Counted from the stretch's first letter, positions 10,464 through 56,500 are shown. The stretch is 64,000 nt of DNA from an uncultured Rickettsiales bacterium (GCA_964588995.1 CAZPQM010000003.1:120187-184186), one strand, 5' to 3'. The notes: generated from the letters alone by a model not told the origin. Numbers and translations are program-made.

Positions 10464-11978
10464 ATGAACCGGATATTTCAGGCTTTATTTACCGAATGGT
10501 CGCGCTTCAATAAGCGTGTTATGTTTCTGACGCTGCTGGGGATAGCACTGTTTCGCTTTTATTTTATCTCTTCCGGTAGCTATGCGACCACGTTCCCGAT
10601 AACCTTTGATGAAGCGAAATTCTGGATCTGGTCGCACTATTGGGATTGGGGTTATTTCTCACGTCCGCCGATGACGGCCTGGCTGCTCGGCCTCTTCACG
10701 GAAGTTTGCGGCCATGCGCTCTTCTGTATTAAAAGCCCCGCCGTTATCGCACACGGGGTGACGGCTTATATCGTTTACCTGATTACGAACCACCTTGCAG
10801 GCGACGATCGGACCGCTTTCTGGGCCGGGGTGGTCTACATGACGTTACCTGGCGTATCGCTCTCGTCCACCTTTTTAACCACCGATGTGTTTCTTCTGAT
10901 GTTCTGGGCGTTGGCACTGCATGCGTTTATCCATGCGTTGAATGATGATGAGGACCGCTGGTGGCTTCTTTTAGGGGTGTGGACGGGGCTGGGACTGCTC
11001 TCCAAATATACGATGGTGCTGTTCCCCCTCTCCTGCATCGTCTACATGGCGCTCTCCCGTATGAACCGAATTGAGCTGGTGCGTCCGCGTTTTTGGATTG
11101 CGATGACACTGGCCATCGTGATTTTCTCACCGAATTACATGTGGAATGCGCTTTATGCCTATTCCAGTTTGGAACGTGTCTTCACCGTCGTGTTTTCCGG
11201 AGAGATTACGATGCATCTGAATTCGCTGGGGAATTTCTTGCTGACGCAATTCGCCCTGTTCGGCCCGGCCACCTTTACGCTGCTTATTCTTGTGATCGGC
11301 CGCTTTTTTCGTACGCATGAAGATTCATTTGTTAAGGTGGGTTTCAGTTTTGTGGTCCCTCTGCTGCTTGTTGCCCTGACTATCGGCTTGCTCTACGGGG
11401 CGAAAGCGCACTGGGCGGCACCAGTCTATATCGCAGCGACCTTCTGGATAGTTTCATTGGCATTTAAAGAAGACAGGGTATGGATTATCAAATTATCCGT
11501 TATGTTGCACGTCATTATCATGCTGCTATATCTGCATATTCATCTGTTAATTGTTGCGTTTAATTTTCCGAATCCGTTTGCGCGCTATTACCCATGGGCT
11601 GCGCTGCAACCGCTAGCGCTGGAATCTCTGACGCAACATCCGAACTCGGTGTTGATTGCCGATGATTACCGTACCATTTCCATGCTGGCCTATAGCTTAC
11701 GTCAGCCCGACGGCACACCGTACCCGGTACAGAAATGGTTTATCGATGGGGAGCCGCAGGATCATTTTGACCTTACCACCCAGATTGATCTTTACCGTAA
11801 TTTCAATATGATTCTGATCACCGAGTCGTCGGATCTCACCGAGTATCAACCTTATTTTGCCTCGATAGAACCGATCGCCTCTCGCGATTTGTTTGGCAGG
11901 CGTTTTACCAGCTACCATTTAGTAGATTTTGCCGGTTTCGGAGAGGAGACTCCGCCGGAGCTGGAAGAAAATGAATGA
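10464..11978 (+). CDS. ArnT/PMT-like membrane glycosyltransferase (GT39/GT83 type)
   Basis: Polytopic membrane protein. N-terminal loop FDEAKFWIWSHYWDWGYFSRPPMTAWLLG resembles the DE..(Y/F)W...GY(F)S.PP motif of ArnT-like enzymes. ATG 10464 is chosen within ORF 10407..11978. Confidence 0.6.
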   Translation: MNRIFQALFTEWSRFNKRVMFLTLLGIALFRFYFISSGSYATTFPITFDEAKFWIWSHYWDWGYFSRPPMTAWLLGLFTEVCGHALFCIKSPAVIAHGVTAYIVYLITNHLAGDDRTAFWAGVVYMTLPGVSLSSTFLTTDVFLLMFWALALHAFIHALNDDEDRWWLLLGVWTGLGLLSKYTMVLFPLSCIVYMALSRMNRIELVRPRFWIAMTLAIVIFSPNYMWNALYAYSSLERVFTVVFSGEITMHLNSLGNFLLTQFALFGPATFTLLILVIGRFFRTHEDSFVKVGFSFVVPLLLVALTIGLLYGAKAHWAAPVYIAATFWIVSLAFKEDRVWIIKLSVMLHVIIMLLYLHIHLLIVAFNFPNPFARYYPWAALQPLALESLTQHPNSVLIADDYRTISMLAYSLRQPDGTPYPVQKWFIDGEPQDHFDLTTQIDLYRNFNMILITESSDLTEYQPYFASIEPIASRDLFGRRFTSYHLVDFAGFGEETPPELEENE

Positions 11979-34436: not shown

Positions 34437-35690
34437 TCACCAGTCCGGAATAAGATCCTGCCCCAGCAGTTCCTCATAGCTTTGCCGGGGGCGTACGACG
34501 GCAAATAGATCCCCCTTGACCATGACTTCGGCTATCAGCGGGCGGGTGTTGTACGTATTACTCATGACCGCGCCATAGGCCCCTGCGGTGCGGAATGCAA
34601 GCAAATCACCGGCAGCGAGCGGTGGCAGCGCGACATCTTTGCGGAAAATATCAGTTGTTTCACACACGGGGCCGACGATATCGGAAATAACGTGCTCATC
34701 ACTTTGCGCATTTTCAACGGGGATAATATCATGATACGCATCATACAGTGCGGCGCGCATCAGGTCGTTCATGGCGGCATCGACCACCGTGAAGCGCCGG
34801 TGTGAGGTTTCCTTGACCATAATTACTTCCGTTACGAGCAGCCCGGCATTACCGCAGATCATACGCCCCGGCTCCAGCCCCAGCTCGCAGTCCAGCCCTT
34901 GCGTACAGCCAATAACAATCTCTGCATATTCATGTGGCAACGGCGGCGATTCCTTCAGATACGGAATACCAAGCCCACCGCCCACATCAATCCGTTCGAT
35001 CGGATAGCCTTGCTGCTTCAGTTCGGCCACAAGGTTCGCTACCCGCTGGAAGGCGGTCTGAAACGGGGTAAGATCGGTCAGTTGTGAGCCGATATGCGTC
35101 GTGATGCCAACAATCTCGATATGCTCAAGCTTAGCAGCGAGCGCGTAAGCCGAGCGAATATCATCGTAAGGAATACCGAATTTATCATCTTTCCGGCCCG
35201 TTGTGATTTTCTCGTGCGTAATCGCATCGACATCCGGATTGACACGGAGCGCAACGGGCGCCTTTTGCCCGCGTGAACCGGCGACCTCGTTCAGCCGCTC
35301 GAGTTCTTGCACAGATTCGACGTTGAACTGGTAAATACCCACTTCGAGCCCGTAAGCCATTTCCGCTTCGGTTTTCCCTACGCCGGAAAAGACGATATCC
35401 TGCGGTTTGATTCCGGCTGCGAGAGCCCGGCGGATTTCCCCTTCGGACACCGTATCTGCACCGGCGCCCTGTCCGGCAAGTGTTTTAAGCACGGCAAGGT
35501 TGCTGTTGGCTTTGACCGCGAAAAACACCTTTGCGTTGACGCGCGCAAAACTCTCGGCGAATACGGTATAGTGCCGGACGAGCGTCGCATCGGAATAGAC
35601 GTAAAACGGGGTACCGACTGCTTTCGCAATTGCCCGAAGATCAACGCCTTCCGCGTGCAATATATCATTGTGGTAGGTGAAGTGATCCAT
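34437..35690 (-). CDS. lysA: diaminopimelate decarboxylase
   Basis: 417 aa. FFAVKANSNLAVL (PLP Lys), GGGLGIPY, CETTD. Confidence 0.93.
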   Translation of the reverse strand: MDHFTYHNDILHAEGVDLRAIAKAVGTPFYVYSDATLVRHYTVFAESFARVNAKVFFAVKANSNLAVLKTLAGQGAGADTVSEGEIRRALAAGIKPQDIVFSGVGKTEAEMAYGLEVGIYQFNVESVQELERLNEVAGSRGQKAPVALRVNPDVDAITHEKITTGRKDDKFGIPYDDIRSAYALAAKLEHIEIVGITTHIGSQLTDLTPFQTAFQRVANLVAELKQQGYPIERIDVGGGLGIPYLKESPPLPHEYAEIVIGCTQGLDCELGLEPGRMICGNAGLLVTEVIMVKETSHRRFTVVDAAMNDLMRAALYDAYHDIIPVENAQSDEHVISDIVGPVCETTDIFRKDVALPPLAAGDLLAFRTAGAYGAVMSNTYNTRPLIAEVMVKGDLFAVVRPRQSYEELLGQDLIPDW

Positions 35691-35707
35691 GCCGGCGTTG
35701 TTAGCAC

Positions 35708-36793
35708 TTATTGTGGTGTATAGCCAAGTTTTTTTGCTGTTTTACTGGTGGTTTCTTCTATGATACGTTGCTCAGCATCGGAAAAATCGTTTTGATAATA
35801 ATCAGGTGCCTGAATCTTTTCATGGTAATGATCCAACACTGTTTGCTGCACCGGTAAATCACAAAACTGGTTGACAGAGGTTAAAATATCCTCGGTCGCG
35901 CTGCATAATTGTTCGTAGTGTATCAGATGAAGATGAGGCTCCAGCGACTTATCCGCTAACATTGAGAGCACATACTGATATGCCTCGTTCCAGTAAGTGG
36001 CCCACCCATGAACACGATCCATTCGTTCACTGCTTTGCAGGAGTGCGGCAACTTCCTTTTGCTTAGCGTTATCACCGAAAGAGATGATGCGCTTGTTTAG
36101 GCCGAATTCGAAATGCTGTGTGCTGTTTGTATGCAATAAACGACTTGGATGGTTGTGTTGTTCCTCGCTGAATAGTCGATCCTGTTTCAGGCAGGAGGCA
36201 ACAAAATGTGAGGGGTTTCGCACCATAATGATAAATCGTGCATCGGGGAATATAGTATGGAGATAGCGGATACGCGTCAGGCAGTAATTCGCTTTGCTGG
36301 CGTAACGGGTACCCTTTCGGCTGACCAGCAATTTTCTAATATGCTGCCGGTAAAAAGTTTCAAACGCAGTGTCCGAAAAATGCTGATCAAGAACGCGATC
36401 TTGTAGCGGTTCATATTCCGCTAAAAAATATGCCCAGAGGATTTCTTCCATCGATTCGGGACTCTCAGCATTGACTAAAAGGCGATCCCTATGCGCGCGT
36501 TCTTTTAAGGCACCCTGCTTCGTAAAGCGGCATGACAGCTTCTGCCAGAAATAAGGAATGTAGATATAAGGAAAATCGCGGTAGCGGTGGGTCACAACTT
36601 CAGGATGCTGGGCAATATATTCCAGCAGGATAGTGGTTCCGGAGCGTGCGAGCCCTGTGATATATAGGGGTTTTTGTATGAGGGTATGATGCAGTTTCTT
36701 TCGAAGCAGCCTATCTTCAAGACGGCTTAGCGCCAGTAAGATGTCGGGATGGCGTGAAAGATAATGGTTAAGCTTCGCCGTTGTCATCAGCAC
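35708..36793 (-). CDS. PAPS-type sulfotransferase family protein
   Basis: 361 aa. 5'-PSB-like loop YITGLARSGTTILLEYI and 3'-PB-like IIMVRNPSHFVAS. Confidence 0.65.
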   Translation of the reverse strand: MLMTTAKLNHYLSRHPDILLALSRLEDRLLRKKLHHTLIQKPLYITGLARSGTTILLEYIAQHPEVVTHRYRDFPYIYIPYFWQKLSCRFTKQGALKERAHRDRLLVNAESPESMEEILWAYFLAEYEPLQDRVLDQHFSDTAFETFYRQHIRKLLVSRKGTRYASKANYCLTRIRYLHTIFPDARFIIMVRNPSHFVASCLKQDRLFSEEQHNHPSRLLHTNSTQHFEFGLNKRIISFGDNAKQKEVAALLQSSERMDRVHGWATYWNEAYQYVLSMLADKSLEPHLHLIHYEQLCSATEDILTSVNQFCDLPVQQTVLDHYHEKIQAPDYYQNDFSDAEQRIIEETTSKTAKKLGYTPQ

Positions 36794-37022
36794 CGGGCTT
36801 ATCCCTATCAGACAGGGATGATTTTTTGCGCTTTTCTTTCAGCTTGATCATATGCAGCCAGATGAAGGTTGCCCCGGCGACAACAAAGCCGAGGATAATC
36901 GCGATCAACCAAGCGAGGCCCCCTATCACCGGCACCAGATAGGCATAAGCGGGTTGGGGAAACAGCACGATAAGCGCTACGGAAAGAGCACTAATCCAAA
37001 AAGTTAATCGCGTCTTTCGCAT
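36768..37022 (-). CDS. small membrane protein (signal peptide plus one TM helix)
   Basis: 84 aa. ...PAYAYLVPVIGGLAWLIAIILGFVVAGATFIWL followed by a Lys-rich tail. Overlaps both neighbours (32 and 26 nt). Confidence 0.45.
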   Translation of the reverse strand: MRKTRLTFWISALSVALIVLFPQPAYAYLVPVIGGLAWLIAIILGFVVAGATFIWLHMIKLKEKRKKSSLSDRDKPGADDNGEA

Positions 37023-38340
37023 AATATTTTACCGAGTTCAATTTCTGAGTGTACAGCACGCGCGGATTATTTCTATCCTTTATCGTACGCAACTCCCAAA
37101 TAGTATTACCTTCCTCATCCACCTGTAAGACGGTTCCGGTTTCAGACGAAGAAACTATCATTGTGCCATCCGCTAAGCGCTTAGAATATCCGCGCCAATA
37201 GCTATATAGGTCTTTACCCAGCGGAGGTACGTAGATGTTACGCGTAATTTCAGTGCGCGGGTTATATTCCAGAATGCGTATATTTGGCACGGCAGCGGCA
37301 TGCTCACCTTTATCTGCAATGATCTGATAGCCGTCATTATCATAGATAACGATGTTGCCCTCATTATTCATGCGGACATGATGCTGATGTTTCCATGGAC
37401 CTTTACGCGCCCACACGACTTTTTGTGTAGAGGGGCGGACTATTGCAATGGTACTGTTGCCACGCAAGGAAACCAGCAGATCCCCTGCCTCAACAAAAGG
37501 CAGCGTACTAGCTTGTTCTGCGGTAATATAATCAATGGAATTCAGATGAATCGGATCATATACGGCTTCGTTGTGCCAAACAGTTTCCTGCGGGGTAATG
37601 TCAATGGCGAAGCTGTTCAGGTAAATAGCGTAATCGGAATCGCGAAACATCTTTTCCACGGGTATGGAGTCAAGCATCACCCCATCCGTAGAGACAATTT
37701 GAATCAGGCCGGTTATAACACTCGCATTGGTCGCACGCGTCTGGTCAATTTCCTCGAAGCTCTCTTCCAAGGCTGAACCGACCGAATAGATATTGCCGTC
37801 CTCCGCCAGGATCATATCATGATGGAAAAGTCCCGGTATTTCCCACAATATTTCACCATCCTTATTCATTCGGGCGATACGTTGCCCACGGTAATTATTC
37901 ATTTCCATAATGGACTCGGAGAAAATGACATCACCGTTGGGAAATAATACGGCATCTTCCACTGTAAATACGGCGCGTTTCGTGTCAAGGTTCTGTAGTT
38001 GATGTTTCTCCAGCGTAATAGGATTAGAAATTTTTTTATCAATATGCCATTCATGAACAACTTCGCCCTGATGATCAACCAGCGCGAGCGCAGGATTATT
38101 GATATAGAGCGGGCTTAGCAAAACGTACCCATTATGAACGCGTTTCGGGTCGTCCGTCCAGCTTGTAAGTTCCGTTGTAATATTCTTGGAGGTCTCGGCC
38201 TGCAGGGCAGAAGATAGCATCTGATCAAACTTTACGAAATAAAACGACGCTTTAGGGTGTTGCCCGAGCATAAGCCCAATGCCAAATGCAATCAGGCAAT
38301 AAAACAGAACGAGTAAAATGGTAGCAATTTTATAAAGCAT
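36991..38340 (-). CDS. membrane-anchored arylsulfotransferase (ASST, Arylsulfotran_2)-like beta-propeller protein
   Basis: 449 aa. N-terminal TM anchor. Blocks GLFHHDMILAEDGNIY, DPIHLNSIDYI, LLVSLRGNSTIAIV and HQHHVRMNNEGNIVIYDNDG resemble the ASST family pattern, recognised by eye. Confidence 0.5.
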   Translation of the reverse strand: MLYKIATILLVLFYCLIAFGIGLMLGQHPKASFYFVKFDQMLSSALQAETSKNITTELTSWTDDPKRVHNGYVLLSPLYINNPALALVDHQGEVVHEWHIDKKISNPITLEKHQLQNLDTKRAVFTVEDAVLFPNGDVIFSESIMEMNNYRGQRIARMNKDGEILWEIPGLFHHDMILAEDGNIYSVGSALEESFEEIDQTRATNASVITGLIQIVSTDGVMLDSIPVEKMFRDSDYAIYLNSFAIDITPQETVWHNEAVYDPIHLNSIDYITAEQASTLPFVEAGDLLVSLRGNSTIAIVRPSTQKVVWARKGPWKHQHHVRMNNEGNIVIYDNDGYQIIADKGEHAAAVPNIRILEYNPRTEITRNIYVPPLGKDLYSYWRGYSKRLADGTMIVSSSETGTVLQVDEEGNTIWELRTIKDRNNPRVLYTQKLNSVKYYAKDAINFLD

Positions 38341-38348
38341 AACGCATT

Positions 38349-38471
38349 TTAAGGCTGGATGGCATCAGGGGTGGTGCGATCGGGAATATACAGATCGTCC
38401 TTCACTCCGCAGGCGGATAGCAAAAGCCCGCTACAAAGGGCCAGAGTCATGAGTGTACTTAAACGTAACAT
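38349..38471 (-). CDS. LptM/YifL/LppL-like small lipoprotein (below the ORF-track size cutoff)
   Basis: Own translation: MLRLSTLMTLALCSGLLLSACGVKDDLYIPDRTTPDAIQP. The lipobox LSAC followed by G-x-K-x-x-LY-x-P matches the LptM motif CGLKGPLYFP. Confidence 0.6.
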   Translation of the reverse strand: MLRLSTLMTLALCSGLLLSACGVKDDLYIPDRTTPDAIQP

Positions 38472-38481
38472 GTTAGGTCTC

Positions 38482-38832
38482 CTAATAATTCGGTATTCGC
38501 GAGTGAGGGGCTAGCTGAAATTCTTTTCGGCTGCTTTGCGAGCGCACGAAGAAGGCCCGGAGTCGTGCCTGACGTGCCGCTTCCATCTCTTCCTCTGTCA
38601 TCTGTTCCTCCTCGTCATCGTCGTCATTATTATTCTGATCGTTGCCTTGCGGTAACTTGCAGAAGCCGGTTATCTCATCACAAAAAAAACCATCTGCCGT
38701 GCCACCACAGGCGGATAGTAGAGACATAGAGGCAAGCGTCATCACGAGGAGACACAGCCGATGAAGTGATCTCGTGACGCGACTGCTTCCAAAGATTGCT
38801 TCGCTATGCTCGCAATGACTAATATCACTCAT
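38482..38832 (-). CDS. putative acidic lipoprotein; the 5' part of the ORF is built from hairpin repeat units
   Basis: 116-aa ORF. Internal [14 protein letters not shown] lipobox (ATG 38742). Mature part contains [21 protein letters not shown]. Residues 1-30 are translated repeat ([11 protein letters not shown]...). The true start is uncertain. Confidence 0.4.
38738..38823. repeat. two GTCAT...ATCTC hairpin units directly downstream of argH
   Basis: Units at 38738-38773(+, gtcatcacgagg...gtgatctc) and 38796-38823(-, aagattgcttcgctatgctcgcaatgac). The second ends 5 nt from the argH stop. Confidence 0.7.
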
Positions 38833-40232
38833 GCCGTCAACCCATAGGCTTTTGCAGCGCGGCTTAGCGCATCTTTCACCTGTTCTGGTGCCGTACCGCC
38901 ATAACTCGTGCGGCTGCTGACGGAGGCTTCTACGCTCAGCACGGAAAAAACATCCTCCGTAATCCGCGGTTCAATTGACTGCATTTCATCTAATGACAAC
39001 GCATCCAGCCGTACGCCTTTTTCGGCAGCTTTATTGACGATACGGCCTGTAATATGGTGGCATTCACGAAAAGGTAAACCCAGTACGCGTACGAGCCAAT
39101 CAGCCAGATCGGTTGCGGTAGAAAAGCCTTGCTGCGCTGCAGCATGCATCGCATCTTTCTGCACGGTGATGTCTTCGAACATACCTTTCATAGCATTGAG
39201 ACAGAGTTCCATATTGGCCGCAGCGGCAAACACACATTCTTTATCTTCCTGCATGTCCTTGCTGTAGGCAAGTGGCAAGCCTTTCATCACGGTAAGCAGC
39301 TGCATCAGACTACCATTAAACCGCCCGGTTTTGGCGCGTATCAATTCCGCTGCATCCGGGTTGCGCTTCTGTGGCATGATGGAAGAACCGGTTGTATAGC
39401 GCTCGGAGAGTGTAATAAACTGAAATCCGCTGGAAACAAACAGGACGAGCTCTTCCGACAAACGTGAAAGATGGGTGCCCAGAATGGCTGACGTCGAAAG
39501 ATACTCCAGCGCAAAATCCCGCGCGGAGACGGAATCGAGTGAATTTTCCGTGGGCTTATGGAATCCGAGCGTTTCCGCTGTTTGATGTCGATCAATCGGG
39601 AAAGAGGTGCCGGCAAGCGCGGCGGCGCCGAGCGGGCATTCATTTGCGCGTTCTTTGCAATCAGTAAGGCGACCCCGATCACGCCCGAACATCTCGATAT
39701 AAGCGTGCAGATGGTGGCCAAAGGTAACGGGTTGCGCCGTTTGCAGGTGGGTGTAGCCCGGCATAACCGTGTCGGTATGGTCCTTAGCGATATCATAGAG
39801 CGCCTGCTGCAGGCCGTGCAGTAGGCCATCCAGCCGGGCGCAGCTATCCAGCAGCCAGAGGCGGAAATCGGTAGCCACCTGATCGTTTCGGGAACGCGCG
39901 GTATGGAGTTTACCGGCCACCTCGCCAATCTTTTCTTTGAGTGCAGCTTCGATATTCATATGAATATCCTCAAGCGCGGCACGGAAGCTAAAATGACCGG
40001 CCTCAATATCCTGCTCAATGGCGGAAAGCCCTCGGGTAATCTGCTCGGCTTCCTCTTCCGTTAAAATATTTTGCTTTGCCAGCATGGAAACATGTGCTTT
40101 CGAGCCCGAAATATCCTGTCGGTAGAGCGCTTTATCGACCTCGATTGATTGATTGATCGCTTCCATCACCTCAGATGGGCCGCCGGAAAAATGGCCTCCC
40201 CACATCGGGTTCGCTGAAGCTTTTCTTGTCAT
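38829..40232 (-). CDS. argH: argininosuccinate lyase
   Basis: 467 aa. [11 protein letters not shown]..., [27 protein letters not shown] signature. Confidence 0.95.
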
Positions 40233-40836: not shown

Positions 40837-40881
40837 AATCATAGTATTGTTAATAAGGGGTAAAGAAGAGTGGTTCTCTAC

Positions 40882-41382
40882 ATGCAGGATGCACTTGCAA
40901 ATAATCCGCTAAAATCATTTAACGTATTGATCGTTGATAATGATGTAAAACTGGTACGTTTACTTCGAAATATCCTGCATGCGTTCGGTTTTACTTCGAT
41001 TGACGTGGCCTCTGACGGTTCTGAGGCCTTTGAAAAAATGGAAGAGAGCAAGTATGATATTATCGTACTTGACTGGGTAATGGAGCCGATGGACGGGTTG
41101 TCATTTGTGCAAAAATTACGTGATGATGAAACAAACAAAAATATTTTTGCTCATGTGATTATGCTAAGTGGTAGAGCTGAGCGTGAAAATATTATGAAAG
41201 CGCGCGATGCCGGCGTGACGGAGTTTATGGCTAAGCCGTTCTCGATTGCTGGTTTTCGGGAGCGGATTATTTCGGTGATAGAATCGCCTCGTGAGTTTGT
41301 GATAGCGCCGACCTATGCTGGTCCTTCTCGCAGGCGGCGTAATCTACCCCCTCCGGATGGGGTAGATCGGAGAGAAGTATGA
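40882..41382 (+). CDS. single-domain CheY-like response regulator with Arg-rich C-terminal tail
   Basis: Receiver residues are present (VDND, IVLDWVMEPMDG, VIMLSG, AKPF). A 20-aa tail GPSRRRRNLPPPDGVDRREV follows. ATG 40882 lies within ORF 40870..41382. Confidence 0.8.
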   Translation: MQDALANNPLKSFNVLIVDNDVKLVRLLRNILHAFGFTSIDVASDGSEAFEKMEESKYDIIVLDWVMEPMDGLSFVQKLRDDETNKNIFAHVIMLSGRAERENIMKARDAGVTEFMAKPFSIAGFRERIISVIESPREFVIAPTYAGPSRRRRNLPPPDGVDRREV

Positions 41383-41885
41383 TTCGCGAACCTAAAATTA
41401 AGCAGGTCAAAGACGATGTCTATATCCGCGAAAAGGATATGGAGCTGATTTCGCGTCTGGGGGGTGCTAATCTGCGTAACCTCATAGGTGAGAAGCAGAT
41501 GCGCAATGCCAGCGAAAAAGTAGAGAATATGGGTAATGAATATGTGGATGAGGCGTGTCTTGAAGTAGCGGCACTTTTTGCGGCCTATGAATCCTTTACG
41601 CTCGGTCAGGATAAGGCGGCCTATAGTTTTCATGATTTCATTGATAGGGTGCTGAATATTAAAAGCATGGCAGGCATGTTCGGTTATCCACTGGCAACGA
41701 CTATTGCGCATTCACTCTATATTTTTTGTGAAAAAAGTTTATTCGATGATCAGCGGGAGTTGGATGTAATTCGGCTGCACATCGTGATGTTGGAGCGCAT
41801 TTTTATGGATCGCGTGCAGGATGATGGTGGAGAGCTGGGACGTGAAATAGTCAAGCAGCTCAGGCAGGTTACGAGCCATCTATGA
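41379..41885 (+). CDS. hypothetical helical protein, possibly Hpt-like without the phospho-accepting His
   Basis: 168 aa. Start overlaps the regulator stop (ATGA). FIDRVLNIKSMAGMFGYPLATTIAHSLY resembles the Hpt helix (H-x-L-K-G-x-A-x-x-x-G) but has Asn at the His position. Confidence 0.35.
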   Translation: MIREPKIKQVKDDVYIREKDMELISRLGGANLRNLIGEKQMRNASEKVENMGNEYVDEACLEVAALFAAYESFTLGQDKAAYSFHDFIDRVLNIKSMAGMFGYPLATTIAHSLYIFCEKSLFDDQRELDVIRLHIVMLERIFMDRVQDDGGELGREIVKQLRQVTSHL

Positions 41886-53515: not shown

Positions 53516-56500
53516 ATGAACGCTCCAACGACCGCACAACTCTTTAAAGCCCAGAAACGTCAGGCGGAAAATATATTCGAGGACGTTATGAACCGCTCGA
53601 AAGGGGTGGATGTCGATGCTGAGCATAAAGCGTTCATGGAACGGTTTTTTAATCAAACGGATCGTATCTCACACGCCAGTGGTTTAGGTTTTCAGCGGGA
53701 TAAATGGTTTGCTAACAGTGGGATGGGTGCAGTCACCGGCGCTGATCAGTATGACGTCGTTCCACTTGCACAAAAATTCCCTTCCATGCACCGAGATGCG
53801 ACAAGGAACTATTACACATATGCGCCTGTGGCGGGCGATCTAATTGAACGTTATAAAGAAATGTACGTTACCGCGCCGGCGGAAGGGCTGATTGACGCAC
53901 GGAAAGAAGGTCGCGCTTCACAGCGCCATTTCCGCCTGGGGGTGGAAAGTGTGCCGGAGGGTGTATATGCAAACTCTTATTTAATGAATATGAACTTGGT
54001 GAAGCTGGCAGCAGATGGCAAGCAGTTTACCGTTAAATATGAGCGGGATGAATGGGGCAACCAGTTGAAAGTGCAAAAAAAGCTGGCTTTTACAGAACAG
54101 GAAGCGGCAGAGGCGGTAGCAGAGGCGATGCAAACCGCAGACTTTTTATTGGAAAACTATAAGAGCATTTTTTCGGACGTTCGCGTCGATGGCCAGGCAC
54201 TGCCGGATCGGATTGAAAATCTCGATCAGTTACAGGCAATGGTGGATAAGGCAAAAAAAGAGGTGAAGAATAGTGAGTTTGCTAACGATTCGGATAACTA
54301 TAAAAAGGCTATGAAGGCCTTAGCTCAGGTCGAAGTGCCCTGGAGTAAGGTGGTGCATTATTGGAAGAAGGTAAAACCGGAGCGAAATGCAACGATAGTC
54401 GCCGGTGTAACCTCGACCGGAGACATGGAGGCGCATATTGAGAAATATGGAACGTCAGCCTATCAGGAAATTCCCCGTTCTAATCTGCTTGCCCCGCAAT
54501 CTGTGGTGCGTAACTCGGAGAGAGCGTTTACCCGTTCGATTGTGGAGCAGTTGGCGGACGTAAGACAAAAAAGTAATGAGGAATTTGAAAAAAAGTTAGC
54601 AGAATTAGGCGGCAAAGTTACCTATAATGATCAAAAGAATCTCTATACGGTACGTCTGCGAGGTGGAAAGCTGTTAATGGATGTATATGCAGAACCACTT
54701 GCGAAAGATTTTATACAAAACTCAGAGGACGATACTGAAACAAAATACAAAAGAGGTAAAGATCATCGGACCGAGATTGTCAGTATCCGCGAGCTCAAAG
54801 CCGAAATAGCCCGTTCAATGCCGAAGTTTCAGCATGGGCAAAATGCGAATAGCACCACGGAGATCGTACACTCGCAGCGTTCCTGGGATATTTACGAGGT
54901 AGCAAGAGACGAAGCAGGTAAGTGGGGTATGCAGGCAAAGGACTGGGTGCATGTAGCCGGGTTGCCGATGGATCCGGCAGCGCGTGAACGGCTGCGTTTT
55001 GATCCGTATGCCGGGCTGGAATTCCGTATGGAGGCGCTTAAGCATGCGGAAGGCACGAAAGAATATAAACACAACATGGAACGCTATAAACAGGCCTTTT
55101 TACGGAAAAATCTCGGGTTTCTTACCAATTTTAAAGACGAACAAACCGGCGAATTATCCAACGATCACAACGATTTCCCTAAGACAAAAAAAGAAGCGGT
55201 ACGCTTAAAAAAGCAAGGCGAACTTCCGAAAGATTACGATGAAGAGCTCAACAACGCGGATTTACAAAAGAAATTATGGAATAAGTGGCAGGAGATGACG
55301 CAGGATGTCGATTTTTCACAGGATAAGGAGGAAGTGAAAAAGGCATTGAAAGGGCGTGCCTTTGGCCCGAATCCGAATGAAACCTATCAGCCTGGTGATC
55401 AAGTGGACCTATACCCTACCTATTACCACGATTATTTGCTTCATGTCTGGAACCATCCCATGAACGCCAAGCTGAGTTTGACCCACTATGGTGAGATCTC
55501 GCTTAGTAATAATCCTCCGTTGGTAGTTAATCGACATGGCGAGATGAAGCAGGCAAAGCCGATGCAGGAGGTCCGGCTGTACCATCCCAGCTTTGGCAAC
55601 TACCTATATGAACACTCAACGGGCGATGTAACCCACTCGTCCATGGGAGGAAGGGCGTTTGGCGGTGGCAATATCAAGGCGTTTGGTACATTTGGGCATG
55701 CTTATATTCACGACAAGTATATGATGGATTATATTAAACAATACAATCCTTTTAAAAATAAACGTGCTAAAGATTATTTTACCGACCACGAGCGCTGGGC
55801 GCCGGAGACTTTTACGGATGCTTCCGAAAATCTGAATACCAGACTGATTGAAGAAGCGACCAAGCTCAGTAGATATATTTTCAAGTATGAGTTGGCCAGT
55901 ACGACGGCAGATGACGCATTACCTCGAATAAGGGCGGCTAAAATCATGGCTGACACTCATCGGGAGCTCACCCTTTCGTTTAAAAATATGGGGTCGGCCG
56001 TTGCGCGTTTTGTAGGTGGCGGTGTGCTAGGTGCCGGGTTGACTGTCGGAGCGTCCGTAGTGGGCGGGTTTGCGCTGACCACGGTCGGCTTTGCGGCGAC
56101 GGCAGTGGTAGCACCTATAGCGGGCGTGATTGCCGGTGCCAAGATGATGAAAAATTATGCGGAAACCCGGTTTGTCGACTTACATGATTTCGAACGGCAA
56201 TCGAAGAGTGATGTATGGCAGATATATGAGAACCGGGTACGGGACGGAGGCCTTTTCGGTCTGGAGGCGCTTAAACAGGATGCATCACTTTTTTTAAGAG
56301 CGCTCAGGAAACTAGCGTATCAGCATAACTATATGCGGACCGGTATTGAGAGTACGGACACCGTTGGGCGTTTAAGCTTATTAGCAGGTGGAGTGTTTTT
56401 CGCCGGAGCAATTACGGCTGCAGCTACCTCCTACCTGGCGGTAGCCGCCGTACCTATTTTGCTGGCGGCAGGTGTAGTATCTTCAGCGGTTGGTGCTACG

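Follow-up and report, generated by a model that had tools for sequence, protein, structure and literature searches.

The closest described counterpart of the locus analyzed here is the sulfation pathway of the caprazamycins in Streptomyces sp. MK730-62F2, where a P-loop sulfotransferase dependent on 3′-phosphoadenosine-5′-phosphosulfate (PAPS) plus an Arylsulfotran_2-type propeller are encoded in one cluster. According to PMC4257720 (citing Tang et al. 2013), the type III polyketide synthase (PKS) Cpz6 makes a phenolic triketide pyrone, which the PAPS-dependent enzyme, Cpz8, charges with sulfate and from which Cpz4 passes the sulfate on to the product. Two further points of reference are AssT of uropathogenic Escherichia coli (EcAST; 3ELQ), encoded with DsbL/DsbI, in which His436 carries the sulfuryl group in a ping-pong mechanism (PMC13426309), and the PAPS-dependent, Sulfotransfer_3-type enzymes RaxST (Xanthomonas) and TPST1/2, of which RaxST is encoded next to its small tyrosine-bearing substrate, RaxX (PMC6637879). 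Here, we analyzed a cassette of three overlapping minus-strand genes in a 64,000-nt stretch of DNA (the window, on which all positions are counted) from an uncultured Rickettsiales bacterium (GCA_964588995.1 CAZPQM010000003.1:120187-184186). The cassette encodes a putative arylsulfate sulfotransferase (ASST) of the propeller type, an 84-aa mini-protein, and a putative PAPS-dependent sulfotransferase. An earlier note on this DNA held that no system of this composition had been described; the caprazamycin pathway already pairs the same two enzyme types through a phenolic carrier, so that both enzyme families and the relay from a PAPS-dependent sulfotransferase to an ASST must be counted as known. 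What is new, within the literature that we searched, is their coupling to a tyrosine-bearing mini-protein and to a protein with three transmembrane (TM) segments, their predicted separation by a membrane, and the breadth of their distribution. Our full-text search found no description of the operon, and no family model covers the mini-protein or the three-TM protein.

Our comparisons indicate that the window cassette is a minimal or reduced form of a widespread, self-contained operon of three or four genes. The same three genes, in the same order, were found in 7 of the 7 close-relative contexts that we fetched, at unrelated loci. The P-loop sulfotransferase has more than 2,000 database matches, many of them 40 to 45% identical over the full length, and a scan of one genome per species placed its relatives in at least 481 genomes, among the Alpha- and Gammaproteobacteria, Planctomycetota, Acidobacteriota, Rokubacteria, Binatia, and Sumerlaeota. 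(The scan was built on the sulfotransferase alignment; the 21-sequence propeller alignment has no stretch conserved enough for a pattern.) Culturable hosts of the operon include Marinobacter, Halomonas, Pseudomonas indica, Stutzerimonas azotifigens, Mesorhizobium, Inquilinus, and Thalassospira. The best 80 sulfotransferase loci were then scanned with local hidden Markov models (HMMs), and 75 of them had enough upstream sequence to be read for the propeller; in 58 of these 75, the propeller gene lies directly upstream of the sulfotransferase gene on the same strand, and about six more are rearranged. A tyrosine-bearing mini-protein is encoded in 57 of the 58 propeller-sulfotransferase loci (54 recovered by a regular expression, and 3 more in which a gene in the gap carries Tyr-[VI]-Gly-Pro-Gly), and a mini-protein with the pattern signal peptide-AxA-Y-[VIL]-x-P is present in 68 of the 80 loci overall. 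A word-indexed search had returned about 10 full-length propeller relatives (37 to 48% identity), which would make the module rare; we rejected this reading as an artifact of sensitivity, since the sulfotransferase search, the genome scan, and the local HMMs all show the module to be common. A metagenome scan for the three-gene clade gave three loci, of which one was new and incomplete.

At many loci there is a fourth gene, between those for the mini-protein and the sulfotransferase, which encodes a protein of 156 to 260 aa with about three TM segments and the motifs LYR..SPQ and YLPVGP.W.RSW (e.g., L013 5534-6004, L014 5283-5999, and L098 4246-4965). This protein has no match over threshold in Pfam or NCBIfam, and RefSeq labels it hypothetical. 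The window cassette is without it. A complete four-gene copy is carried by the 289-kb plasmid pD4M1B of Paroceanicella profunda (L098), where the RefSeq labels read arylsulfotransferase family protein, hypothetical, hypothetical, and sulfotransferase; in a marine alphaproteobacterial metagenome-assembled genome (MAG), the module lies beside trb/virB type IV secretion genes (L009, 1-7182). Both copies fit a portable unit. When the neighboring open reading frames (ORFs) of the 80 loci were clustered, no other family occurred in more than 6 of the 80, and the recurrent neighbor families included no type III PKS or other enzyme that makes phenols. Genes for adenosine-5′-phosphosulfate (APS) kinase or for CysN-like/CysC proteins abut the operon in 8 loci, the examples containing APS kinase being L046 (9094-10596), L054 (9108-10601), L058 (9085-10839), L005 (7310-7852, next to the cassette and divergent from it), L028, L049, and L072. 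In Pseudomonas indica, Pseudomonas sp. PIC25, and Stutzerimonas azotifigens, the APS-kinase genes lie directly downstream of the sulfotransferase gene and are fused to a CysN-like domain. The proximity of these genes supports the use of PAPS by the operon and gives the impression of a supply of PAPS reserved for it.

For the propeller, the ASST-like assignment made in the earlier note was borne out by Pfam, which gave matches above the cut-offs to Arylsulfotran_2 (PF14269; 96.1 bits against a cut-off of 27, E = 3e-27, model positions 6 to 299 of 301) and Arylsulfotrans (PF05935; 41.7 bits, E = 1e-10). In an AlphaFold2 model made with 21 relatives (predicted local distance difference test [pLDDT] score of 88.2; predicted TM-score [pTM] of 0.85), an N-terminal TM helix at about residues 5 to 23 leads into a long helix, after which comes the beta-propeller. 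Foldseek placed Cpz4 first among PDB structures (9kf6/9kf4; E = 2e-14, TM-score of 0.55), followed by 3no2, a Bacteroides protein of unknown function, and then by EcAST (3elq/4p07); a sequence profile of the propeller family independently finds Cpz4 (E of about 1e-12 to 8e-12) and AssT. The polar residues that are invariant in the 21 relatives are H173, H174, H265, N267, D287, S291, R293, Q319, H320, and N335, and the D334-N335 pair is likewise invariant. Q319-H320 falls on Q435-H436 of EcAST, the column mutated in 4p04 to 4p06, and on the QHD of Cpz4, while R293 aligns with the IILSSR of EcAST (which ends at position 374) and with the LLLSGR of Cpz4. H173/H174 and H265-x-N267 occur in the same order as His252 and His356-x-Asn358, which are listed in the sulfate-coordinating site of EcAST (PMC13426309), a correspondence of pattern rather than a residue-by-residue alignment. 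The motifs common to Cpz4 and the propeller are thus LLxSxR, QH(D/H), and (F/Y)DN, the last of which reads FDN in Cpz4 itself.

The identity of the propeller to Cpz4 and EcAST is just 13 to 17%, and its Foldseek matches include many propellers. It could be argued from this that the protein is not a sulfotransferase at all but a lectin- or NHL-like binder or some other enzyme, in which case the gene association would not amount to a sulfate relay. We regard this as very improbable, given that the ASST models of Pfam score far over their cut-offs, that the catalytic His, the Arg, and the H-x-N are invariant in the family, the His and the Arg lining up with those of EcAST and Cpz4, and that the gene is persistently coupled to one for a PAPS-type sulfotransferase. 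On the evidence of sequence and model, the propeller is an intact ASST-type enzyme with Cpz4 as its nearest solved relative, and its activity is predicted accordingly to be that of a sulfotransferase. Like AssT, it is six-bladed and (as predicted here) extracytoplasmic, with H320 in the place of H436, R293 in the place of R374, and an H-x-N that corresponds by pattern, and it too has genes for small membrane-associated partners alongside. It differs from AssT in that its best family is PF14269 and not PF05935, in that it is without the N-terminal beta-sandwich dimerization domain and is membrane anchored rather than soluble, and in that it is paired with a PAPS sulfotransferase and a tyrosine-bearing mini-protein, with no dsb genes adjacent. 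Moreover, the natural donor of EcAST has not been identified, whereas the window operon encodes a plausible donor-making route.

The second enzyme matches Sulfotransfer_3 (PF13469; 71.4 bits against a cut-off of 27, E = 2e-19) and Sulfotransfer_1 (PF00685; 37.8 bits, E = 2e-9). Its phosphosulfate-binding loop, G-L-A-R-S-G-x-T, is invariant in 16 family members, and the nearest PDB sequences are those of TPST1/2 (E of about 6e-7, colinear over three stretches). All 31 Foldseek matches of its AlphaFold2 model (pLDDT of 86.7) at E ≤ 1e-3 are PAPS sulfotransferases. No hydrophobic or TM segment was found in the protein, which, with the family matches and the PAPS motifs, agrees with the earlier description of a cytoplasmic PAPS-type sulfotransferase. 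We therefore consider it to be an enzyme of the PAPS-dependent type that has kept its PAPS motifs intact and is TPST-like, with an activity predicted from sequence and model. Unlike in TPST, the position of the catalytic base aligns with His67/Arg68 and not with a Glu. The protein also presents an invariant acidic surface, SPEAFEE.

The most informative feature of the cassette, missed by the earlier note, is an invariant tyrosine at the predicted signal-peptidase site of the mini-protein. This protein has a basic N terminus and a signal peptide (residues 1 to 27) that ends in A25-Y26-A27, followed by Tyr28-Leu-Val-Pro, a TM helix, a cluster of K/R, and an acidic tail; the flanks of Tyr28 are hydrophobic (PAYA-Y-LVPVIGG). 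Unlike RaxX, the mini-protein is predicted to stay anchored in the membrane, with no secretion by a RaxAB-type exporter. Pfam, NCBIfam, and PADLOC have no family for it. In an exhaustive phmmer search with the window protein against 1.84 billion representatives, 13 of 13 matches kept A-x-A-Y-L-x-P-x-x-[GA]-G, and the Tyr is conserved in the alignment of the 7 syntenic homologues. The consensus of the broad family consists of a signal peptide, A-x-A, Y-[VI]-G-P-G-A-G-L-S-L-L-G-A-L-W-G, a TM segment, and W-P-[LI]-R-R. Because the regular expression that was used to recover mini-proteins itself requires the Tyr, conservation of this residue was checked on ORFs chosen by position only, as well as by the exhaustive phmmer search. 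At positions that are free of the pattern, 73 distinct mini-proteins have Ala at -3 in 71 cases and at -1 in all 73, and among the position-only ORFs the Tyr is retained even where the A-x-A is absent (two loci, with Tyr-[VI]-Gly-Pro-Gly).

Table 1. Features of the cassette and of its flanking genes (window positions)
Feature	Position	Strand	Remarks
Propeller gene	36991..38340	-	449 aa; membrane anchored; predicted periplasmic Cpz4-like aryl-sulfotransferase, six-bladed beta-propeller
His320 codon	37381..37383	-	Predicted sulfo-histidine nucleophile; codon verified
Arg293 codon	37462..37464	-	Motif GDLLVSLR; equivalent of EcAST Arg374; codon verified
His265-Leu-Asn267 codons	37540..37548	-	H-x-N pattern as in EcAST His356-x-Asn358; by pattern and order only
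Mini-protein gene	36768..37022	-	84 aa; signal peptide, Tyr28, TM helix
Tyr28 codon	36939..36941	-	Predicted +1 residue after signal-peptidase cleavage, at the periplasmic membrane face; codon verified
PQPAYAYLVPVIGG			Peptide named as a candidate sulfotransferase substrate alongside the mini-protein precursor
Sulfotransferase gene	35708..36793	-	Predicted cytoplasmic PAPS-type sulfotransferase, TPST-like; 361 aa from GTG, 359 aa from ATG at 36787
5′-Phosphosulfate-binding loop GLARSGTT (sulfotransferase)	36632..36655	-	Verified; aligned with TPST GVPRSGTT
3′-Phosphate-binding motif VRNPSHFVAS (sulfotransferase)	36194..36223	-	Verified; invariant R..P....AS; aligned with TPST MVRDGRASVHS
LptM-type lipoprotein gene	38349..38471	-	40 aa; directly upstream of the cassette; lipobox LLSAC/G (cleavage at the slash); weak match to PF13627 LptM_cons
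lysA (diaminopimelate decarboxylase)	34437..35690	-	Directly downstream of the cassette; TIGR01048, 489.8 bits versus cut-off of 297.9
argH (argininosuccinate lyase)	38829..40232	-	First gene of the co-oriented string; TIGR00838, 603.6 bits versus cut-off of 279.5
Lipoprotein-like ORF	38482..38832	-	116 aa; between argH and lptM; outside the cassette, context only; not in L096

The topology of the three proteins can be predicted from the distribution of charge. For 23 members of the propeller family, the count of K/R is 86 on the N-terminal flank of the anchor and 39 over the 15 residues that follow the TM segment, a bias that points to an N-in anchor and an external propeller. In the mini-protein, both the N- and the C-terminal flank are basic and the A-x-A-Y loop is uncharged, from which its Tyr should face the periplasm. 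Together with the soluble character of the sulfotransferase, the N-terminal anchor of the propeller and this K/R bias favor the division into a cytoplasmic and an extracytoplasmic enzyme that the earlier note had suggested, and we infer the topologies of all three proteins on this basis.

Since the propeller is most like Cpz4, we propose that the two-step logic of the Cpz system is used here as well, stretched across the inner membrane. The cytoplasmic P-loop enzyme would take sulfate from PAPS to give an aryl sulfate ester, which would reach the outer face of the inner membrane; there, the membrane-tethered propeller would take the sulfuryl group onto His320 (in a ping-pong mechanism, as in EcAST and Cpz4) and would pass it to a periplasmic or envelope acceptor. 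We consider the case for such a relay, from PAPS sulfotransferase through aryl sulfate to ASST across the inner membrane, to be evenly balanced. As in the caprazamycin cluster, both enzyme types are encoded together, with the window sulfotransferase gene two genes downstream of the propeller gene and overlapping its neighbor. The differences are that the host is Gram negative and the inner membrane is predicted to separate the two enzymes, that the window propeller has an N-terminal membrane anchor, that there is no antibiotic cluster around the operon, and that the partner sulfotransferase is TPST-like. A type III PKS, or any other gene for making a phenol, is also missing from the cassette and from its recurrent neighbors, and a tyrosine-bearing mini-protein, often with a three-TM protein, stands in place of the carrier-making enzyme.

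It is this last difference that raises the question of which phenol would carry the sulfate. With no recurrent phenol-making family beside it, the Tyr of the mini-protein is the sole conserved phenol encoded with the enzymes, and in an operon that is portable it becomes the obvious candidate. Tyr28 of the precursor may be sulfated in the cytoplasm by the TPST-like enzyme and, after membrane insertion and cleavage at A-x-A, would end up on the periplasmic surface of the membrane. The likeness of the sulfotransferase to TPST, the precedent of RaxX/RaxST, and the activity of aryl-sulfotransferases on tyrosine-containing peptides (PMC13426309, Table 1) are all compatible with Tyr28 as the phenol. 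That Tyr28 is the sulfate carrier is, in our estimation, possible but doubtful. It is with like reserve that we tentatively suggest the mini-protein to be a ribosomally made sulfate shuttle, the natural aryl-sulfate donor for the propeller, with targets in the envelope or outside the cell. Each part of this scheme (a sulfated Tyr28, the direction in which sulfate is passed, and the ultimate acceptor) is presumptive.

Several observations weigh against the relay and the shuttle. Making one ribosomal protein per sulfate would be costly, and there would be no route for resulfation once the Tyr is outside. Tyr28 sits in a hydrophobic signal-peptide junction (AxA-Y-VGPGAGL in the broad family), unlike the acidic substrates of TPST and RaxST. 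The Foldseek ranking for the sulfotransferase (TPST2/TPST1, the mycobacterial Stf9 and Stf1, and CurM-ST at the top, with TM-scores of 0.46 to 0.54) does not discriminate among these enzymes, the fold being equally near Stf1/Stf9 and CurM-ST. The anchor of the window propeller itself is charge neutral (+2/+2), so that its orientation rests on the trend of the family. Probes for APS kinase and for CysN-like/CysC found none in the 64-kb window, cysD, cysH, and cysQ not having been probed. Finally, two loci (L079, 6869-12107, and L090, 6699-9062) keep the mini-protein, the three-TM protein, and the sulfotransferase but lack a propeller within 8 kb. The propeller is thus not a required component, which would allow for a mini-protein that is an end product or that acts as an adaptor.

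Were the mini-protein the end product, it would be a membrane-anchored peptide with an N-terminal sulfotyrosine, made by a logic resembling that of RaxX/RaxST. The sulfate would be added by the TPST-like enzyme before export or, alternatively, by the propeller from an exported aryl sulfate, and the second enzyme would serve as an editor, an eraser, or a generator of donor. The sulfotransferase and the mini-protein are indeed the most constant pairing, found together without the propeller in the two loci just mentioned; the TPST-like enzyme and the arrangement of raxST next to the gene for its substrate point the same way, as does the presence of an ABC transporter gene and an HlyD-type gene after the cassette in L002. 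Nevertheless, we consider this explanation unlikely. It leaves an intact ASST-type enzyme, which has no counterpart in the RaxX/RaxST system, unexplained in about 80% of loci, the surroundings of the Tyr are not acidic, no dedicated peptidase-exporter is conserved, and the mature product would be bound to the membrane and have no evident function.

A further possibility is that the two enzymes carry out a two-step or dual sulfation of a nonprotein molecule (a membrane quinol, a small phenol, an envelope glycan, or a lipid), while the mini-protein and the three-TM protein act as scaffold, adaptor, or flippase partner and the Tyr has a structural or binding role. The carrier of the Cpz system is a small molecule (PMC4257720), and Cpz4 sulfates a sugar hydroxyl (PMC13426309). 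The polytopic protein of the four-gene versions could move a small carrier, and the basic juxtamembrane cluster of the mini-protein could dock onto the acidic SPEAFEE surface of the sulfotransferase. On the other hand, the operon is not accompanied by any conserved gene for carrier biosynthesis or for a glycan or lipid pathway, the window version with its three genes manages without any polytopic protein, and the invariance across phyla of a single Tyr just after the signal-peptidase site goes beyond what a scaffold needs. Sulfation of a nonprotein target therefore strikes us as improbable, too.

With regard to the genomic setting, the three overlapping minus-strand genes reported in the earlier note are real, with overlaps of 32 nt and of 20 or 26 nt, the latter depending on the start of the sulfotransferase gene; our ORF calls agree with the public calls on the identical contig, which use the ATG at 36787. 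The junctions were also as described (8 nt from the end of lptM to the start of the propeller gene and 17 nt from the sulfotransferase stop to the start of lysA), and so was the housekeeping context, lysA and argH both scoring above their NCBIfam equivalog cut-offs, with an lptM-type gene upstream. The number of promoter-like sites (12, versus 7.7 ± 2.7 expected) and that of terminator-like sites (10, versus 7.1 ± 2.4) are at chance level, and none of the latter inside the gene string is convincing. With no signal to set the cassette apart from argH-lptM on its upstream side or from lysA on its downstream side, cotranscription is the simplest reading, and the cassette is presumably read through with argH-lptM-lysA. 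PADLOC returned no matches for the cassette, leaving a role in defense unsupported.

Adjacency of lptM and lysA is widely conserved. In locus L096, whose LysA is 63% identical to that of the window, a 38-aa lptM homologue directly abuts lysA (4 nt apart), with neither the cassette nor the 116-aa lipoprotein ORF between the flanking genes. The rest of the neighborhood is as in the window and comprises a divergent thioredoxin-like gene, argH, lptM, lysA, and tonB-exbD-exbB. The window follows the familiar lptM(yifL/lppL)-lysA/dapF arrangement in its 40-aa lipoprotein with an LSAC/G lipobox and in its argH-lptM-lysA string, and departs from it in that 2.6 kb of sulfotransferase genes split lptM from lysA and the 116-aa ORF splits argH from lptM. 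L096 is the sole syntenic relative available, the other two of the three LysA-match contexts not being syntenic. Genomes nearer to the host than L096 would include the sources of P0271 and P0026, whose cassette proteins are 82% and 74% identical. The nearest LysA match is 64% identical, and the matches carry the names of Alphaproteobacteria and Rickettsiales MAGs; the host is a deep-branching alphaproteobacterium without a close sequenced relative. The adjacency in L096, together with the different loci that the cassette occupies elsewhere, supports the earlier suggestion of an insertion between lptM and lysA in the lineage of the window, with one distant syntenic relative as its basis. For horizontal acquisition, which the earlier note had also proposed, the signs are mixed: the cassette interrupts an adjacency kept in L096 and deviates modestly in composition, but there are no mobility genes, no tRNA target, and no flanking repeats. 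The junctions have only short chance repeats and no integrase, and no tRNA, tmRNA, or Rfam match was found. Given this and the modest compositional signal, no claim can be made that the insertion was recent.

The label "AT-rich" that the earlier note gave to the cassette overstates a dip in G+C content that is genuine but small. The content is 45.1% in the propeller gene (30 to 40% had been claimed), 45.8% in the sulfotransferase gene, and 46.0% in the whole cassette, compared to 53.1% in argH, much as claimed, and 55.1% in lysA (claimed as about 62%); the mean for genes of the window is 51.4 ± 3.7% (60 ORFs). A sliding window the size of the cassette ranks second lowest of 246 in G+C content (-2.1 standard deviations [SD]), with three other regions of the window as low, and the tetranucleotide distance of the cassette is +1.7 SD. 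Codon usage is atypical in the sulfotransferase gene (rank 2 of 33) and typical in the propeller gene (rank 29 of 33). Cassettes in other hosts match the local G+C content. Other stretches of low G+C content in the window (37 to 47%) lie at 40.3 to 41.9, 49.0 to 49.6, 53.0 to 56.0, and 57.8 to 59.8 kb; among them are a 1,155-aa ORF (53516-56983) and a gene for a response regulator, paired with an unknown partner (40870-41885).

The typical codon usage of the propeller gene and the local G+C content of the cassettes elsewhere speak for the converse view, namely, that the cassette is ancestral between lptM and lysA and was lost from L096, the dip in G+C content reflecting amino acid and codon usage rather than foreign origin. 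The distance of the single syntenic relative and the lack of flanking repeats, integrase, and tRNA are in keeping with it as well. Set against this are the 4-nt gap between lptM and lysA in L096 and the positions of the cassette elsewhere: it lies directly behind alaS in four lineages (L004, L007, L012, and L100, with no more than about 35 nt from the alaS stop to the start of the propeller gene, in recA-(marR)-alaS strings), as well as by type IV secretion genes, by an APS kinase gene, and on a plasmid, so that several independent relocations would be needed in any event. An ancestral cassette thus seems to us decidedly unlikely. The alaS subclade shares with the lptM-lysA site of the window a tight embedding behind a housekeeping gene.

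Some further features of the window and of the related loci deserve mention. The 116-aa ORF upstream of lptM, which has no family match, has an internal lipobox (MSLLSAC/GG) and an 11-residue run, and its lipobox-coding stretch (38692-38718) is 74% identical over 27 nt to a stretch of lptM (38394-38420), a repeat that hints at partial duplication. In L002 (177-10262), a DUF6538 gene precedes the cassette, and the genes after it specify a DCC1-like polytopic membrane protein (589 aa), an ABC transporter, and an HlyD/AprE-type protein, the last two resembling the RaxA/RaxB-style export genes next to raxST. In L005, from a marine alphaproteobacterial MAG of 39% G+C, the cassette is followed by a gene (10708-11874) for a 388-aa protein with eukaryote-like leucine-rich repeats (LRR_TMOD-LMOD), which suggests a host-associated lifestyle for some carriers. 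Downstream of its propeller-less variant, L079 has two P-loop sulfotransferase-like ORFs and a gene for a secreted 388-aa protein. Sulfatase-like ORFs with motifs of the alkaline phosphatase superfamily occur near the sulfotransferase and mini-protein genes of Wenzhouxiangellaceae (L066, 6184-7806 and 9844-11310; L094, 1486-2991).

What bacterial PAPS-independent aryl-sulfotransferases use as donors in the cell, and what roles they play, is an acknowledged gap (PMC13426309), and the operon bears on a related open problem, the delivery of activated sulfate to the Gram-negative periplasm. It would take the two-step logic of Cpz8/Cpz4 beyond a single antibiotic pathway of Streptomyces and make of it a module general to bacteria, and it defines two unnamed protein families, the tyrosine-bearing mini-protein and its three-TM partner, which are at present annotated as hypothetical. 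Because the operon occurs in culturable, genetically tractable species, the question of the relay is directly testable. If the mini-protein does serve as a shuttle, it would be the first protein-borne sulfuryl carrier and would give the first account of how periplasmic aryl-sulfotransferases are supplied with activated sulfate in a compartment free of PAPS. Should the acceptor prove to be a component of the envelope, the operon would reveal an unrecognized modification of the bacterial cell surface.

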